Assembly (NCBI GenBank): GCA_964429275.1
Contig: CAYSBJ010000002.1
Coordinates: 62,001-126,000 of the forward strand
Direction: 5' to 3'
DNA length: 64,000 nt
Source: an uncultured Pseudomonadota bacterium
GTDB lineage: Bacteria; Babelota; Babeliae; Babelales; JAUPTZ01
The notes beneath the pieces were generated by a model. That model saw only the letters and a list, made by a program, of their open reading frames with translations, was not told the DNA's origin and ran no database searches. Numbering within the stretch: the first letter of the stretch is position 1; each line of letters starts with the position of its first letter. Positions 31,658 through 64,000 of this stretch are shown piece by piece. A program made the translations under genes and the position numbers.

Positions 31658-32722
31658 TTATTTTTTTTCTACCACATTGTTAGGGGTTATGAGCGATAGT
31701 GCCACATGATTACTTTGTGTAAGGAAGTTTCCAATTACCATCGCTGCAGTTATAGGCGAGGCAGTTTGCGGATGGATGACCACCATTGTGTCGCTACTAA
31801 TTTCTTTAAGAGGTAGTGTTGAGGCCGATACCTTATCTTCGAGTATTTCAATAGCGTACTTAGCACTTTGAATGCCCATTGCTCGTTCTGGGCATTCGGT
31901 GATTCCAATAAATACATCGGGACAAGAAATGTCTGGCGAAAAGACCGGAACATTAAACTGCTGAGCTTCTCGGGCAATGCGGGAGGAATACCGCAATATT
32001 TCGCTGCTGCGGGAAAGAACAATCATGTCTATGGTTTCAAGCAAATGAGTATTTAGTTCGGTGCTCTTGTCGATATTCGGGACGTGGTGCATGCGCCAGG
32101 AGATGTGCATTTTGCGAAGTGCAGCAGTGATAGCATTTTTTTCTTTTAAGTTGTTATGCGAAATTTCGTCTACGGAACGATAAATGATTAGAACTGTTTT
32201 TACCCGGGGATTCACGCGATTCATAAGTGCTATGTTGCGTTCCCAGTTCATCTTTGAGCACACAGCAGTCAATGGAGTGGTTGCTTGCATTGCTTCAAAT
32301 GGCGTGACGTTGTAGCCCATTGGTGAACCAGCAGAAATGATAGGGATTTTTTTATGGTGCATTTTCATGGCGTTAAAAGCAACTTCGCTCGACAGAAGGC
32401 CGATTGCAAGAATAAGGTCCGCTTTACAGTCAATAGCGTAATTTACCCATTCCTGAGCCTTGTCACGGTTAAGATTATGAACGCAATCGACCGTTTCAAA
32501 CTCAAAAGAGGCATACTTTTTCATATGCGCAATGAAGGGCCTAATTACTTCAGCAATCGCAGGAATTACCGATGGCTTAATAACGACAATAGTGTAATGC
32601 TCTCGCGTTTCTTTTAGATAGTTTAGGAGGTTGCGTAGCGCTTGGATTTTATGATACAGATAGCGCATGCCTACCACGACGATGCAGGCGATTGCTAAAA
32701 GTATAAAGTCATTATACATCAT
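31658..32722 (-). CDS. ABC_sub_bind-like protein with N-terminal TM helix
   Basis: ADLILAIG, IPII, NPRVKTV, IDMIV, VPVFS, MG.Q.A..A..IL, LPL. Confidence 0.75.
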   Translation of the reverse strand: MMYNDFILLAIACIVVVGMRYLYHKIQALRNLLNYLKETREHYTIVVIKPSVIPAIAEVIRPFIAHMKKYASFEFETVDCVHNLNRDKAQEWVNYAIDCKADLILAIGLLSSEVAFNAMKMHHKKIPIISAGSPMGYNVTPFEAMQATTPLTAVCSKMNWERNIALMNRVNPRVKTVLIIYRSVDEISHNNLKEKNAITAALRKMHISWRMHHVPNIDKSTELNTHLLETIDMIVLSRSSEILRYSSRIAREAQQFNVPVFSPDISCPDVFIGITECPERAMGIQSAKYAIEILEDKVSASTLPLKEISSDTMVVIHPQTASPITAAMVIGNFLTQSNHVALSLITPNNVVEKK

Positions 32723-33836
32723 ATACGGCCCTTTGATTGTGATGCTTTGATTCCTTAATTACTATGCCATGCTTCATTAAAAATTGTATGTTTTTGGGGG
32801 TTTTAGTGTTTTGTAGAGTGCTTGTGCTTGTCTTTTTATTGAGTATTGGATCGATATCCCAGTCTTTAATATGAATGAATGAAATTCCGCTCGGTTTTTT
32901 TTTGTGAATCAACATTTCTCTAGCAAACCAAACGCTATAATGGCTGGCGCTTCCTTCGTGCGAACAAGCGCCACATGCAGCTCCACGCTCGATACTAATC
33001 GTATCTGATACAAAAATAGGAACGTGATAATTGTTTCCCAGTGCTACCAATTTATCCATGGCAGGAACCATCCCAGAATCGCGAAGCACGATGATAACAT
33101 CTATATCTTCGAGAGCGTTGCGCAAGTAATTGAAAGTGGTGTTAATATTTTCTATACCAACTTCTGTATGTGTAATGCCGTGCTGGTCGAGTTCAGCTTT
33201 GATTCCATCAAGGCAGGATGGATCACGAGAGGTATTATATAAGAACAGTGCTTTTCGAATATTTGGTACTAGCTTCTTGAGTATTTCTATGCGACGGGTC
33301 CAATTATACGACCCCCCCCAGCCGGTGGTGTAGGTTTTTAAGGAAGGATTTTCTTGTAGAAGCTCCGTGAGTCCATCCCACGGGAGGCTGCTGAGCATTA
33401 TGGGGGTGGTTGGGGTATGTTTTGGGATAAGACCAGCAACGGCTTGTGCCGGTTGCAATCCTATCACCCATATAAGATTGTACGCTGCATTTAACAATTT
33501 ATGTGCCATAGCGCTCAAGAGCGTATAGTTCTCTTCGGCAGTGTGTAGGTGGATGCTACATGTTGTTCCGGTTGCCTTTTTGAATGTTTGTTCAAATTCT
33601 GTAATGAGAGCTTCAACAAGTGGTGAACAGCCATATACAAGTACTCCAATGGTAAAAACATCCGGTTGCCCTATTTCTTCAGCTATAAGCGGGATATCGT
33701 TAATGCCGTGACTAATCCATATCTTGTGTGTGGGTCCTGTGTGCGTGGTTGCATGCGGCTGGTGTGCAAGATATCCAATGCCGAGCGTAAGTAAAAAAGC
33801 GTTGAAAAATAAGAGCGGCACTACAGGAATTTTCAT
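32712..33836 (-). CDS. ABC_sub_bind-like protein with N-terminal anchor
   Basis: NLIWVIG, LKKLVPNIRK, IDVIIVLRD, VPIFVSDTISIERGA. Confidence 0.8.
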   Translation of the reverse strand: MKIPVVPLLFFNAFLLTLGIGYLAHQPHATTHTGPTHKIWISHGINDIPLIAEEIGQPDVFTIGVLVYGCSPLVEALITEFEQTFKKATGTTCSIHLHTAEENYTLLSAMAHKLLNAAYNLIWVIGLQPAQAVAGLIPKHTPTTPIMLSSLPWDGLTELLQENPSLKTYTTGWGGSYNWTRRIEILKKLVPNIRKALFLYNTSRDPSCLDGIKAELDQHGITHTEVGIENINTTFNYLRNALEDIDVIIVLRDSGMVPAMDKLVALGNNYHVPIFVSDTISIERGAACGACSHEGSASHYSVWFAREMLIHKKKPSGISFIHIKDWDIDPILNKKTSTSTLQNTKTPKNIQFLMKHGIVIKESKHHNQRAVYDV

Positions 33837-34975
33837 GTAAGTTCTATGTCCTTATCCACCGTTGCGGAAACCTTTGTGCTGTATTGGAGGGCGAGGGCGG
33901 TAATGCGAGAAGAATCAAGTCCTTGGGTTTGCATAGCCATTTGGTTGAAATGCATTTGGTAAGGATGGGTTTGGTCGAGAGTAAGAATGGGAACGTCTTT
34001 TGGTGCGCGATTCTCTTCTAGAATGGCAAGCATTTTCTGAGCTGCGTGGTAGCCAAATCGTTCGTTAATTGTGTTGAGTGCAACTGCTGCACCATAATTA
34101 ATATCGTTGAGAAATGGGCTGAAAAAAGTGATGCCATGCTCGGAGCATTTTTTGGCAATTGCAGTACAGGCATCAGGAGTGAATGCATCGCGTATTGGAA
34201 TGATGCTGTCAATTTTATCTGCGTGCTCGGAGATGGAGTTGAGCAAGTCTTCAGTGCCGTGGACGCGTACTAGATGTGGCATGATGCCGTAACTATTGAG
34301 AACAGCTGCAACTTCTTGTGCTGCTTCATAAAGAGAGGAGTGTGTCAGTGGTACGAGTGCGGCGCGCATAAACGGCTTTACCGCAAGATACATTTTAATG
34401 CGGTATGCCCAACAATCAAGAACGGTGATGCCGGTCATATGAGCGGCTGGCTTTTTTTCCTGTTCTTTGCGCCAGTGGTTATCATGGACTCGGGCAAAAA
34501 CGATAGGAGTTTGTTTGTTGTGCGTGTAGCTAATATTTTTTGCAAGCTTGGTTAGGCTGCTGCCGATGGTGAAGAGCCCGTGATAGTTGTCTAAAATTAC
34601 GCTGGAAACAATTCGTTGCGTCTCTTTTTGGTCAGCACTTCCCCAATAATTGGTGAAATGGTAGATGTACGAGCCATTTTCACGCATCGTTTCCGTGAAT
34701 TCTGCAATGGTTTCGATGGTGTCCGGTTGCTTTGAAAGTCCAATGATGGCAATATCGCGAGATCGAGAGCCAAAATTTTTTTTGTAATCGCTGTACCGCA
34801 TCACCGGGTGGTCGACGGTGGTTAGACCCGTTTCTAATTTCTTCTGTGCAGCGCTTTGTAGTCGCTTTATTTTATGATGTTCGTAGCAGAGATAAAGGTA
34901 GTAACCAGCCATGAGGAGTAGTCCCGTAATGAGACAACCGCTCATTATTACGAGTGGCAGCATGAATTGATTCAT
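33833..34975 (-). CDS. ABC_sub_bind-like protein with N-terminal TM helix
   Basis: LFTIG, TPIVF, HMTGI, KP.M, IDSIIPIRD, YGAAVAL, G..AA.K...IL, FN..A...QGL. Confidence 0.8.
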   Translation of the reverse strand: MNQFMLPLVIMSGCLITGLLLMAGYYLYLCYEHHKIKRLQSAAQKKLETGLTTVDHPVMRYSDYKKNFGSRSRDIAIIGLSKQPDTIETIAEFTETMRENGSYIYHFTNYWGSADQKETQRIVSSVILDNYHGLFTIGSSLTKLAKNISYTHNKQTPIVFARVHDNHWRKEQEKKPAAHMTGITVLDCWAYRIKMYLAVKPFMRAALVPLTHSSLYEAAQEVAAVLNSYGIMPHLVRVHGTEDLLNSISEHADKIDSIIPIRDAFTPDACTAIAKKCSEHGITFFSPFLNDINYGAAVALNTINERFGYHAAQKMLAILEENRAPKDVPILTLDQTHPYQMHFNQMAMQTQGLDSSRITALALQYSTKVSATVDKDIELT

Positions 34976-35060
34976 AAGAGCACAACCCCAGTCCTTACTT
35001 AGTATGTACGTTAAATATCTAAGAATGCTCTAACTATACGCTAGGATTGGGCTTTTGTCA

Positions 35061-35119
35061 TCCCGCCGTCGCAATTTGATTTGCTAACGCACCCCAAATT
35101 GTCTATGGCGTGGCAGGCC
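35061..35119 (+). repeat. tRNA-associated palindromic element; left arm of a 59-bp inverted repeat
   Basis: tcccgccgtcgcaatttgatttgctaacgcaccccaaattgtctatggcgtggcaggcc; 57 of 59 nt match the reverse complement of 35565-35623. Confidence 0.92.
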
Positions 35120-35384: not shown

Positions 35385-35461
35385 TGGTGTGTCTAATAGG
35401 ATTCGAACCTACGGCCTAGCGATTAGGAATCGCTCGCTCTATCCAACTGAGCTATAGACAC
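35385..35461 (-). tRNA. tRNA-Arg (anticodon CCT)
   Basis: gtgtctatagctcagttggatagagcgagcgatt-CCT-aatcgctaggccgtaggttcgaatcctattagacacacca; cloverleaf with encoded CCA. Confidence 0.97.
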
Positions 35462-35564: not shown

Positions 35565-35623
35565 GGCTTGCCACGCCATAGACAATTTGGGGTGCGTTAG
35601 CACATCAAATTGCGACGGCGGGA
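35565..35623 (-). repeat. Right arm of the 59-bp inverted repeat
   Basis: Reverse complement of 35061-35119 with two mismatches. Confidence 0.92.
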
Positions 35624-35656
35624 GGAGTCTAAAGAAAAATAGGCACGGTGACAAGA

Positions 35657-37618
35657 TTAGCGAACAAGCGGTTCTAAGACTTGATTTTTTTGTAGGGAGC
35701 GCCGAGCATTCTCAATCGCGACCTCCAAGGTTTGCAGGTCAAGCATAGAATTGCCTTTGTTTAGCATGGCATAAATCGTTTGGGCAACCAGAGAGTCAAT
35801 TTGTCGTCCCACAAGTCCATCCATTTTTTGTGCAAGCAACGCTTTTTCTCGGCGAATTTCATCGCTAACGCTGAGACCGCGGTCGATAAGGTGTTGTTTG
35901 AGGTAGCTGTCCAGTAGGGATTCTCGCTCTCTTTGTCCAGGCGCCGTGAATTCGACATGGTTTGAGCCGTCGATACGATTCAGAAGTGCTTTCTCGATCC
36001 GGTCTGGGTAGTTGGTAGAGAAAATAAACATCATTTTTCCATGAATGCCACGTTCAAAGAAGCTGAGCATGGTGGTAGTGAGGTCGTTGGTCATTTCGTT
36101 TGCAAAATTTGAGTCACGATCAGCAAACATTGTTTCAGCTTCGTCAAATACCAAGATTACCGGGCGCTTATTTTTGCTTGCCCACCGCAAGATGTTGGCG
36201 AGAGCTTCTTGAGCTTTAGCAGGGGAGCCAAGGCGCTTAAATGCTGGCCCACGTATAATAACGTGGTCGGCAATGCCTTGTTCATAGAGTCGGCGAGCAA
36301 AAGCTTGAGCTGCCATGGTTTTACCAGTTCCTGGAGGGCCGTAGAACATCATGTTACTAAGTGGAAAGCCTTTTTGAATTGCTAGGACAATACCGGCAAA
36401 CTTACCAATAACTTGTTGTGCCAAGCTTGGCTCAAGGATAACGGCATCAAGGTTTGAGGCTGGAACTTTAAAGCCACGCCATTTATCCATACGACTGAGC
36501 ATTGAGGTGTCGGCGCGTTCAATAATTGTTGGCCGTGGTTGGTAGTAGTGGCGTATGCCAAAGTAACCGCCAATCCCGAGGATAGTGGCTATGGTAAGCG
36601 CAGGAATAGCGAATTGTACCAGGCTCTTTCGTGCCTTGAGGCGTGCTTCTTGTTGTTCTTTGTCTGCGAGCATCGTGGCAGTATGTTTTTCTTTGTCCGC
36701 CAGCAGAGTGGCATCATGTTTTAATTTATCTGCCGCCACAGTTTCTTTGTGTTGAGCGATGAGGGTCGGCTGTTGCAGTTCAGCAATTTTGGCACTTGCG
36801 TCCCCTTGTGCTTTGATTTGATCGACGGCTACTTTGCCTTGTTCTTTTATGCGTTCTTGCTTGGCCTTGTCTTTTTCTTCCTTAGCTTTGCGGGTTGCTT
36901 CTGCTACGGCAAGTTGGCCCGCAACATCCGCAACACTCAATGCTTTTTTGTTTGCGGCTTCTGCGGCAGTTGTTTCTCGCTCGAGGGCGATTCGGCCCCG
37001 CATGTTGACAAGGTAGGCTCGTTGCTCGTTCAGCGCCTTTTCGAGTTTGTACAGGTGTTTTGCTGCTCTGAAGGTTGCTACGAGTTTTTTTCGTCGTGAG
37101 TTATACTCTAAGGTATAACCATAGTAATGATCAGTGGCTACTCGGTCAGCGTCTGGTTTGAGTTCAACTTTTGAAAGCCAGTCTCGCAATCCTTGTTGGT
37201 TCAAGGCTGCGCCTGAACGCATGTTTTCCCACCAATATGAGCTGGTTGGTTGTATGCCTTGCGCCTCAAGTTCTCTCATGTGCTCCTGGGTAAGCTTAAA
37301 AAGGTCTGTGTAGTCGTAAGAGCAAGCACTTGCAGAGTTAAAAAAGTCACGGCGTCCATCTTCAATCCAGTCTCCGATTGTCTGTAGCTTTTCTGTCAAT
37401 ACGGCAGGGTTACTCAGGTGTTCTGTATTGGTGAGATCATTTGCTAATTGCTCAACGGCCTCTTTATCGCTTTTGATCGGACTTATCTTTGCGTAAAGTC
37501 CCGTGGCGTCCTCTACTATTTGTGATGTTTTGATTGTGGCCTGTGGAGCTGCTGTTGCCGCGGTCAAAATGTGCCCGCCCAAAAGCGCAAGCGTGAGAAG
37601 AAGTAACTTTTTTTTCAT
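35657..37618 (-). CDS. Exported membrane-anchored AAA+ ATPase, ATAD3-like
   Basis: Signal peptide, long coiled coil, TM helix, then LDAVILEPSL, NMMFYGPPGTGKT, RWASKNKR, LVFDEAE, STNYP, NRID, FTAPGQRER. Confidence 0.85.
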   Translation of the reverse strand: MKKKLLLLTLALLGGHILTAATAAPQATIKTSQIVEDATGLYAKISPIKSDKEAVEQLANDLTNTEHLSNPAVLTEKLQTIGDWIEDGRRDFFNSASACSYDYTDLFKLTQEHMRELEAQGIQPTSSYWWENMRSGAALNQQGLRDWLSKVELKPDADRVATDHYYGYTLEYNSRRKKLVATFRAAKHLYKLEKALNEQRAYLVNMRGRIALERETTAAEAANKKALSVADVAGQLAVAEATRKAKEEKDKAKQERIKEQGKVAVDQIKAQGDASAKIAELQQPTLIAQHKETVAADKLKHDATLLADKEKHTATMLADKEQQEARLKARKSLVQFAIPALTIATILGIGGYFGIRHYYQPRPTIIERADTSMLSRMDKWRGFKVPASNLDAVILEPSLAQQVIGKFAGIVLAIQKGFPLSNMMFYGPPGTGKTMAAQAFARRLYEQGIADHVIIRGPAFKRLGSPAKAQEALANILRWASKNKRPVILVFDEAETMFADRDSNFANEMTNDLTTTMLSFFERGIHGKMMFIFSTNYPDRIEKALLNRIDGSNHVEFTAPGQRERESLLDSYLKQHLIDRGLSVSDEIRREKALLAQKMDGLVGRQIDSLVAQTIYAMLNKGNSMLDLQTLEVAIENARRSLQKNQVLEPLVR

Positions 37619-37784: not shown

Positions 37785-37861
37785 TGGTGCGCCCGGCAGG
37801 ACTCGAACCTGCAACCAACGGATTCGAAGTCCGGTACTCTATCCAATTGAGCTACGGGCGC
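37785..37861 (-). tRNA. tRNA-Arg (anticodon TCG)
   Basis: gcgcccgtagctcaattggatagagtaccggact-TCG-aatccgttggttgcaggttcgagtcctgccgggcgcacca. Confidence 0.96.
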
Positions 37862-63297: not shown

Positions 63298-64000
63298 CTA
63301 TTCCTCCGTTGGCTTATTATCCAACGATGTTGGCTCACCACCAATAACTGATTGAGTATCAATTGCGTGTTGGAAGGTGCGTCCTACAAAATAGGAAACG
63401 GCTACCCATACAGCGGTAATAGAGAGCATAAAGCTGCTGCTTATGAGATGGCTAAACGCTGGCGCATAGGTGCAGGCATTTTTATAGAAAATGGAACCAC
63501 CAGCTTTGGCAATGCGGGATCCAAATGCATCGCTCCATGCCTTGCTTTTGAACTTAATTTCTTTCGTTGTTGGGATATAGAGCATTTCTCGTACTGGGTG
63601 GTTGAGGCCGTAGTTGGCGCCACGAAATAGTGCCGCAATGAAGAACAGCATTTCTGCTGAAGGGAAGAGGAAGGCGGTAATGACGGCGGCAAAGCAGAAC
63701 GCGGGGAATATGAGGAACATGGTCCGATTGCTAAACATACGTTGTAGCGGCGTAGTGGCAAAAACGGAGATGAGAAAGCCGCATACGTGCATAGTCAGGA
63801 AGTAGCCGGCGTAATAGATCGCAAGCTTTGCTACGGTGTCATGAGCGTCATCTGCCGCTACAAGAACGTGAAATTCCATAACAGTCATGATGAGATCGTA
63901 AAAGATAGAGAGGCTGAAGATACCTAGGACGTATGGTTGAGAAATGATTACCAGTAGGCCATCAACCGATTGTTTGAGCCAGTGTGTTAGAGAGAATTTA
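63298..64000 (-). CDS. NTT/Tlc family nucleotide (ATP/ADP-like) translocase, C-terminal part
   Basis: RGANYGLNHPVREMLYIPT..EIKFKSKAW.D.FG.R.AKAGGS; the frame is open to the window end. Confidence 0.88.
   Translation of the reverse strand, partial: KFSLTHWLKQSVDGLLVIISQPYVLGIFSLSIFYDLIMTVMEFHVLVAADDAHDTVAKLAIYYAGYFLTMHVCGFLISVFATTPLQRMFSNRTMFLIFPAFCFAAVITAFLFPSAEMLFFIAALFRGANYGLNHPVREMLYIPTTKEIKFKSKAWSDAFGSRIAKAGGSIFYKNACTYAPAFSHLISSSFMLSITAVWVAVSYFVGRTFQHAIDTQSVIGGEPTSLDNKPTEE

Follow-up and report, generated by a model that had tools for sequence, protein, structure and literature searches.

An ATAD3-like membrane AAA ATPase of an uncultured Dependentiae bacterium, probably one of a superfamily diversified within its phylum

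We analysed a 64,000-nt stretch of DNA (the window: contig CAYSBJ010000002.1 of GCA_964429275.1, positions 62,001 to 126,000, forward strand) from an uncultured bacterium, and in it one open reading frame (ORF) whose product, P0001, is a 653-residue protein with an AAA ATPase domain. Our reading, to which we give a probability of about 0.7, is that P0001 is a type-I inner-membrane AAA ATPase and that the ATAD3-like superfamily around it has expanded and diversified in Dependentiae. The source genome (1.208 Mb, 98% complete) belongs to this phylum, and the nearest database relatives of P0001 bear the name 'Candidatus Dependentiae bacterium'. ATAD3 is usually treated as eukaryote-only; it is essential in animals, is linked to human mitochondrial disease, and has been described as an organizer of inner-outer membrane contacts, nucleoids and cholesterol traffic.

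From its N-terminus, P0001 reads as a signal-type segment, a helical ectodomain, one transmembrane (TM) helix, a juxtamembrane motif and a single classical AAA module (Table 1). The original prediction for this gene, made from the sequence, had listed motifs reminiscent of ATAD3, and every string that it quoted is found in the translation, NLDAVILEPSL and, towards the C-terminus, VEFTAPGQRERESLLDSYL among them. The N-terminal segment, MKKKLLLLTLALLGG...TAATAAP, combines a basic n-region, an 11-residue hydrophobic core and an A-x-A near residue 23, with a hydropathy peak of 2.03 at residue 6 and an AlphaFold2 helix over residues 2-19; by the -3/-1 rule, cleavage would fall near residue 24. The AlphaFold2 model, built on a 44-sequence alignment with a mean predicted local distance difference test score (pLDDT) of 79, places helices at residues 155-271 (117 residues) and 283-358, the second continuing into the TM segment, and low-confidence helices at residues 31-150; the long helices 155-271 and 283-335 would make up a coiled-coil stalk. 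The TM helix lies 71 residues ahead of Walker A (group medians, 65-73). Three close paralogs, P0001 included, are encoded in this genome (653, 432 and 574 amino acids) and share one plan. In a comparison of five family members, identity is 56-68% from the juxtamembrane motif to the C-terminus but only 23-34% in the ectodomains, whose length varies from 96 to 464 residues. Two tandem 33-nt units in the stalk hint at coiled-coil length change through repeat gain or loss.

The Pfam scan of P0001 returned a single domain, PF00004 (AAA; residues 423-552, E = 1.5e-20), and the NCBIfam scan returned weak sub-threshold matches alone, to CDC48, CdvC and PAN. Key residues of both Walker motifs, of sensor-1, of the arginine finger and of the lid arginine are all intact and invariant, D492 nearly so, and include the sensor-1 residue N536 in FIFSTNYP, which is invariant in 44 sequences; this invariance of the catalytic residues suggests an active ATPase. 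The AAA module is modelled with block pLDDT values of 92-98, and its Foldseek matches in the PDB (Rpt, PAN, FtsH, Msp1 and p97, at E 1e-13 to 1e-11) are those of a generic classical AAA fold, with no power to separate clades. At the pore loop 1 position P0001 has K-R-L-G against K-Y-L-G in Afg2, with Arg in place of the aromatic residue; ATAD3 has A-P-L-G there and likewise no aromatic residue. The lid arginine is common to P0001 and ATAD3 (GFSGREI), whereas CDC48 has G-A-D at that place.

For the SPECIFICALLY ATAD3-like question, AAA domains were scored one by one, because a second AAA domain raises the score of a whole protein. When residues 355-653 served as the phmmer query, the close family scored 200-650 bits per domain (42 rows, 37 distinct proteins) and other single-domain Dependentiae-like proteins 96-161 bits, several of them identical to ORFs of Dependentiae genomes. 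A group of 27 proteins followed at 74-92 bits, of which 25 carry PF12037 (ATAD3_N), and every remaining AAA domain in the comparison set reached 63 bits or less; the 26 named prokaryotic AAA proteins lay at 18-57 bits, and the top single stretch from the PDB, in Rix7, at 57.6 bits. As judged by these per-domain scores (74-92 against at most 63 bits), ATAD3 is the nearest named family.

Comparison of profiles points the same way. A profile of 16 family members aligned with one of 15 ATAD3 sequences over 265 columns (hhalign score 340, E = 4e-42), and the alignment starts at RPTIIE..DTS opposite G-Q-P-S-L-I-R-E-S-S-R, outside the AAA core; against archaeal CDC48 the same family profile scored 175 (E = 2e-21, 205 columns), with the start just ahead of Walker A. 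Within this juxtamembrane motif P363, I366, D370, T371 and S372 are invariant in the 16 family members, and P363 is invariant across 28 bacterial and eukaryotic sequences. In the reverse direction, a plant ATAD3 query gave 92-209 bits on 17 ORFs of Dependentiae genomes, against an outgroup maximum of 75.7. Plant ATAD3 used as a protein search query returned only plant ATAD3 among its best 120 matches, and among 80 single-domain neighbours from an exhaustive representative search, eight matched PF12037 at E <= 1e-5, mostly through the profile end alone.

The link between P0001 and ATAD3 runs through other Dependentiae proteins. With the AAA part of P0001 as query (E <= 1e-30), matches came from 24 of 261 Dependentiae genomes, and those above 40% identity were confined to its own genus, in three of the four other genomes. 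The C-terminal 316 residues of another ORF, L123, used at the same threshold on the same genomes, detected ATAD3-like genes in 105 of the 261 (78 of 189 high-quality genomes), spread over 62 of 145 genera and 13 of 21 families, with up to six copies per genome and tandem clusters. L123 itself is 505 residues long, with a signal-type N-terminus, a TM helix and LGMPTLVRESSR (L-G-M-P-T-L-V-R-E-S-S-R), and matches eukaryotic ATAD3 from Fragaria, Rosa, Prunus and Hondaea at 230-237 bits and 38-41% identity. PF12037 itself was detected in 13 of the 261 genomes at E <= 1e-3, in six of these above the cut-off, and in none of 14 control genomes; these free-living model bacteria thus showed no sign of the family by PF12037, a check that is no proper survey of other phyla. 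P0001 has the plan of the Dependentiae ATAD3-like proteins: a signal-type N-terminus, a variable helical ectodomain, a TM helix some 65-75 residues ahead of Walker A, and an AAA domain that falls in the ATAD3 clade. It shares phylum, plan and tree clade with the PF12037-bearing Dependentiae proteins, which are multi-copy and often in tandem. Unlike P0001, those proteins retain ATAD3_N and 38-41% identity to eukaryotic ATAD3, and next to them P0001, with a longer and unrelated ectodomain, falls in a faster-evolving subfamily. Tandem triplets of ATAD3-like genes lie at G142:C3 39136-44809 and at G133:C7 25963-30328, the latter in a genome with up to six copies.

The named relatives are Dependentiae or Babeliales, unclassified 'bacterium', and one metagenome-assembled genome (MAG) labelled Epsilonproteobacteria, so that among them equally close homologs do not appear as widespread in free-living bacteria. 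On a single 728,521-nt contig with the NCBI label 'Epsilonproteobacteria bacterium' there are three ATAD3-like paralogs (P0413, P0417 and P0462); it is either a mislabelled MAG or the sole hint of the family beyond Dependentiae. Automatic annotation already labels some family members 'ATAD3A/B'. We found no paper linking ATAD3 to Dependentiae or Babeliales, although supplementary files might list such genes, and none on bacterial ATAD3 homologs, judging by titles and the openings of abstracts. As far as these searches reach, the Dependentiae family is undescribed in papers though partly labelled in databases.

A careful maximum-likelihood tree (81 rows, LG+C20+F+G4) comprised 12 eukaryotic ATAD3 and 51 Dependentiae-like domains as ingroup and 18 outgroup domains. 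As outgroups the trees used archaeal CDC48 together with multi-AAA proteins from metagenomes, the FtsH and the double-AAA protein of the P0001 genome, and the 26 named prokaryotic AAA proteins. The 63 ingroup domains separated from the 18 outgroup domains with support 100/100 on a branch of length 0.79, and P0001 fell in a 20-row clade (100/97) nested within a 41-row clade (100/96). The result of a quick 114-row tree is consistent with the careful one, and a quick tree with 43 outgroup domains recovered the grouping of ATAD3 with Dependentiae at 94 in the SH-like approximate likelihood ratio test (SH-aLRT). On these sequence comparisons, the AAA and juxtamembrane part of P0001 is shown to be specifically related to eukaryotic ATAD3 through the Dependentiae intermediates, and P0001 very probably is a member of an ATAD3-like superfamily. 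Basally the ingroup is comb-like, with the eukaryotic ATAD3 clade (100/99) beside several Dependentiae proteins that bear PF12037 and a Dependentiae clade of 46 rows (86/53). When the bacterial rows were all constrained to a single clade, the log-likelihood fell by 5.4 units, and this constraint was not rejected (p-value of the approximately unbiased test, 0.397). From these trees transfer could have run from host to parasite or from parasite to host. One scenario of the second kind is speculative and in our view rather unlikely: Dependentiae would have an old, diversified family of true ATAD3 relatives, oriented in the membrane like mitochondrial ATAD3 and spanning the envelope as inner-outer membrane organizers, and an early eukaryote would have acquired one of these genes, the ancestor of mitochondrial ATAD3, from an intracellular bacterium akin to Dependentiae. 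Three metagenome proteins of 853-979 residues (P0046, P0068 and P0077) combine PF12037 and AAA with an extra N-terminal region that has a hydrophobic start; they match PF13884 (Peptidase_S74, endosialidase chaperone) in a precomputed Pfam list and form a branch of their own inside the eukaryote-type ATAD3 clade.

Set beside eukaryotic ATAD3 (ATAD3A/B; PF12037 plus PF00004), P0001 shows the same order of coiled coil, TM helix, juxtamembrane motif and single classical AAA domain. Both have the juxtamembrane signature [RKQ]-P-x-[LI]-[IV]-x-E-x-S and the non-core motifs W-A..S before Walker B, P-G..E-R..L...Y and lid G..G-R-[EQ]-I, and both lack the aromatic pore-loop residue. Unlike ATAD3, P0001 is encoded by a bacterium, in a 1.2 Mb genome, and carries a predicted Sec-type signal peptide; its AAA part is merely about 28-35% identical, its Walker B reads D-E-A-E rather than D-E-A-D, its coiled coil is not alignable, and it sits on a derived branch nested among Dependentiae proteins. 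It lacks two defining features of ATAD3 proper, the ATAD3_N domain and the eukaryotic mitochondrial context, and represents a divergent offshoot within an ATAD3-like family spread across Dependentiae, rather than an orthologue of ATAD3. The kinship with ATAD3 that the original prediction had claimed is thus borne out by the domain scores, the profiles and the trees, and its idea of a bacterial sister lineage is compatible with the data at the level of the superfamily.

Several results weigh against this placement or against the architecture. PF12037 gave no match in P0001 at E <= 0.1 in the Pfam scan and none in its own genome at E <= 1e-3, and the N-terminal coiled coil of the family did not align with that of ATAD3 in the profile comparison. 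A language-model search with residues 25-335 returned an ATAD3_N cluster at 0.78, below the level that shuffled sequences reach, and is a lead at best. P0001 scored 86 bits with plant ATAD3, while ATAD3 scored 93.8 bits with one stretch of Rix7; because the direct score is no better than this, the assignment rests on the intermediates, the non-core motifs and the trees. The trees lack the eukaryotic non-ATAD3 AAA clades (Rpt, Vps4/katanin, BCS1, Msp1 and NVL), and many of their 'Dependentiae-like' rows are metagenome proteins that carry no taxon name. The signal peptide and TM helix were assigned from hydropathy and the -3/-1 rule by eye, with no dedicated predictor, and a crude hydropathy threshold saw the TM helix in 14 of 17 close-family rows, a statistic that overlooks Gly/Ala-rich TM segments, so that its misses do not amount to absence.

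The predicted signal and single hydrophobic helix bear directly on topology: whether or not the signal is cleaved, the ectodomain would be periplasmic and the AAA module cytoplasmic, and we regard this N-out/C-in orientation as probable. The Sec system would export the N-terminal roughly 310 residues to the periplasm, and the TM helix would stop transfer and keep the ATPase in the bacterial cytoplasm. ATAD3 is reported to have its coiled coils in the intermembrane space, its N-terminus towards the outer membrane and its ATPase in the matrix (PMC10419812), an orientation to which that predicted for P0001 is equivalent, with periplasm and cytoplasm taking the places of intermembrane space and matrix. 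The 'exported' ATPase of the original prediction is the wrong picture, since the predicted topology matches that of ATAD3, with the ATPase inside; the word suits the N-terminal part alone.

The AAA modules may form a ring on the cytoplasmic face. A helix rises 0.15 nm per residue, and the modelled stalk helices of 117 and 53 residues could extend to about 25 nm, on the scale of a periplasm, and span it toward the outer membrane. P0001 might then act as an ATP-regulated, envelope-spanning scaffold or tether that organizes inner-outer membrane contacts, and might connect the envelope with sites of the nucleoid or of translation in the cytoplasm, as proposed for ATAD3. We offer this function tentatively, on analogy. 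Threading requires an aromatic pore-loop residue, and we favour a scaffold over a threading unfoldase because the P0001 family and ATAD3 both lack it.

An AAA protein of the ordinary bacterial kind, with a likeness to ATAD3 that is convergent or generic, would account for the missing PF12037 match and for a P0001-ATAD3 score within the range that ATAD3 reaches with unrelated AAA domains such as Rix7. Against it stand the ATAD3 profile score, double that of CDC48, with an alignment that begins at a motif outside the AAA core; the lid motif G-x-x-G-R-[EQ]-I common to both families; the Dependentiae intermediates that combine PF12037 with 38-41% identity to ATAD3; and the trees, in which P0001 groups with ATAD3 and not with ordinary bacterial families, in the careful tree at 100/100 and at SH-aLRT 94 with 43 outgroup domains. 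We consider this reading very improbable. The solved structures with the highest summed score for P0001 are CDC48, p97 and Afg2, which differ from it in having two AAA domains (about 41-46 bits each) and no membrane anchor. Rather less improbable, though still unlikely, is a membrane-anchored AAA unfoldase or extractase acting on envelope or cytoplasmic proteins, in the manner of FtsH minus its protease or of Msp1. P0001 has the fold and the full catalytic set of classical AAA motors, FtsH, Msp1, Rpt and PAN are among its best structural matches, and the genome is rich in AAA+ proteins, with 15 PF00004 matches. Like FtsH, P0001 would be anchored in the membrane, with a classical AAA module on the cytoplasmic side and its N-terminal region in the periplasm. 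FtsH, however, has two TM helices flanking its periplasmic domain and an M41 protease domain. The Pfam scan of P0001 revealed no M41, no other protease and no substrate-recognition domain; TIGR01241 reached 22.6 bits, well short of its cut-off of 600; the genome's own FtsH reached 26 bits with the P0001 query and fell in the tree outgroup; and in P0001 Arg replaces the pore-loop-1 aromatic residue, which ATAD3 lacks too.

The original prediction had further suggested that the protein tethers or remodels host mitochondria and that its gene was acquired at an integration-prone site. A secreted or translocated effector that mimics host ATAD3 would suit a phylum of intracellular parasites of protists, and the ectodomains of the family are hypervariable in length and sequence, as is often seen in host-facing proteins. 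In Chromulinavorax destructans the host mitochondrion is reported to wrap around the replicating bacterium, 44% of coding sequences (CDS) to carry signal peptides, and one 'mitofilin-like' CDS to be a proposed manipulator; the word 'AAA' is absent from the text available (PMC6561590). In P0001, however, the Sec signal and the single stop-transfer helix after it would hold the protein in the inner membrane and leave its ATPase in the cytoplasm of the bacterium, and no secretion signal besides Sec was identified. ATAD3, moreover, is described as working from inside mitochondria with a matrix ATPase (PMC10419812), beyond reach of a bacterial surface protein. The predicted topology thus argues against an effector, for which we found no support and which we judge highly unlikely. 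As for the locus, tRNA-Arg(cct) and tRNA-Arg(tcg) do flank the ORF, as the original prediction had it, and a 62-nt inverted repeat brackets one of them, both of which would suit an island that entered recently by horizontal transfer at a tRNA-Arg integration site. Yet the GC content at the locus (0.478-0.488) is typical of the window (0.425-0.493), the gene is surrounded by housekeeping genes (a pair of ABC substrate-binding paralogs, dusB, gatA and gatC), the five flanking ORFs scanned yielded no integrase domain, and no duplicated tRNA end was seen at the locus. The closest congener still has the gene beside tRNA-Arg(cct), the two paralogs in the P0001 genome and the G115 homolog lie distant from tRNAs, and the family is old within the phylum. 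Integration-prone acquisition finds no backing in these data, and we give a recent island almost no credence.

On the reading of P0001 as an inner-membrane member of an ATAD3-like superfamily, a large bacterial family with the plan and orientation of ATAD3 would raise the question of where ATAD3 came from, and would point to an envelope system as yet unstudied in a phylum whose members are obligate parasites of protists. Two PDB sequence searches, with P0001 and with ATAD3 as queries, returned no solved ATAD3 structure, and small single-TM bacterial relatives could be tractable models for its structure and mechanism. A 2025 preprint, self-described as the first ATAD3 study in a unicellular organism, finds ATAD3 essential in Plasmodium; the words bacteria and prokaryot- are absent from the part of its text available.

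The 62-nt repeat around tRNA-Arg(cct) might fold into a long stem that encloses the tRNA precursor. As a signature of a mobile element or att site it was set aside: just two copies exist genome-wide, and in four congeners the tRNA is conserved but the repeat arms around it are not. Promoter and terminator scans stayed at the level of shuffled sequence (3 against 2.0 and 5 against 4.0). The two ABC_sub_bind (PF04392) paralogs, downstream of the tRNA at window 32712-34975, overlap in their stop and start.

Table 1. Features of the P0001 gene and its surroundings, in window coordinates
Feature	Position	Strand	Basis or remark
P0001, ATAD3-like membrane AAA ATPase, whole ORF, 653 amino acids, ATG start	35657..37618	(-)	ORF list, translation, Pfam, tree
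Predicted Sec-type signal peptide or N-terminal signal anchor, residues 1-24	37547..37618	(-)	MKKK, hydrophobic core, A-T-A before A-P
Predicted periplasmic ectodomain, residues 25-335	36614..37546	(-)	AlphaFold2; no Pfam family
Tandem 33-nt units x2, 79% identical, 11-residue stalk repeat, about residues 301-323	36651..36716	(-)	Repeat search, translation
Predicted single TM helix FAIPALTIATILGIGGYFGI, residues 336-355	36554..36613	(-)	One hydrophobic segment and continuous model helix 283-358
Juxtamembrane motif RPTIIERADTS, residues 362-372	36503..36535	(-)	Family alignment, profile comparison
Classical AAA module (alpha/beta core and helical lid), residues 395-650, predicted cytoplasmic	35669..36436	(-)	PF00004, AlphaFold2, Foldseek
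Walker A GPPGTGKT within NMMFYGPPGTGKT, residues 427-434	36317..36340	(-)	G427, G430, G432, K433 invariant (44 sequences)
Pore loop 1 position AFKRLGS, residues 459-465	36224..36244	(-)	Alignment with Afg2
Walker B LVFDEAE within ILRWASKNKRPVILVFDEAE, residues 489-495	36134..36154	(-)	E493 invariant, D492 nearly so
Arginine-finger position R548 (NRID)	35975..35977	(-)	Invariant in 44 sequences; role by alignment of the second region of homology (SRH) with classical AAA proteins
Lid arginine R605 in GLVGRQI	35804..35806	(-)	Invariant in 44 sequences
tRNA-Arg(cct), downstream neighbour	35385-35461	(-)	Adjacency also in closest congener
tRNA-Arg(tcg), upstream neighbour	37785-37861	(-)	Same strand as P0001 gene
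Terminator-like hairpin between tRNA-Arg(tcg) and ORF start	37740-37725	(-)	Terminator scan at shuffle level
62-nt inverted repeat, 95% complementary, arms 445 nt apart, around tRNA-Arg(cct)	35058-35119 and 35565-35626

Nine matches to the TLC/NTT nucleotide transporter family in the genome fit an energy parasite lifestyle. The NTT translocase mentioned in the original prediction is indeed there, as a TLC/NTT gene that runs past the end of the window (window 63397-64000; G000:C2:125397-126740). The 574-residue paralog of P0001 (C1:348391-349641) sits in the middle of a cluster of TLC/NTT matches (L003, G000:C1 344200-354222).

Two further AAA proteins of the genome were noted. A 607-residue protein (L006, G000:C1 255961-257118) has a hydrophobic N-terminus and two AAA domains, and the trees place it with FtsH. 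Outside the window, a 540-residue ORF (L030 1183-2805, minus strand, at G000:C2 about 252.8-254.5 kb) combines a hydrophobic N-terminus with a further hydrophobic segment inside the protein, a K-P-S-I-Y stretch and an AAA domain whose Walker A reads G-P-P-G-T-A-K-T, with the glycine preceding the lysine replaced. By eye it looks like an ATAD3-like member, but its long branch lies on the outgroup side of the tree and it was not counted; it may be a degenerate ATAD3-like paralog, a placement that the long branch makes unsure.

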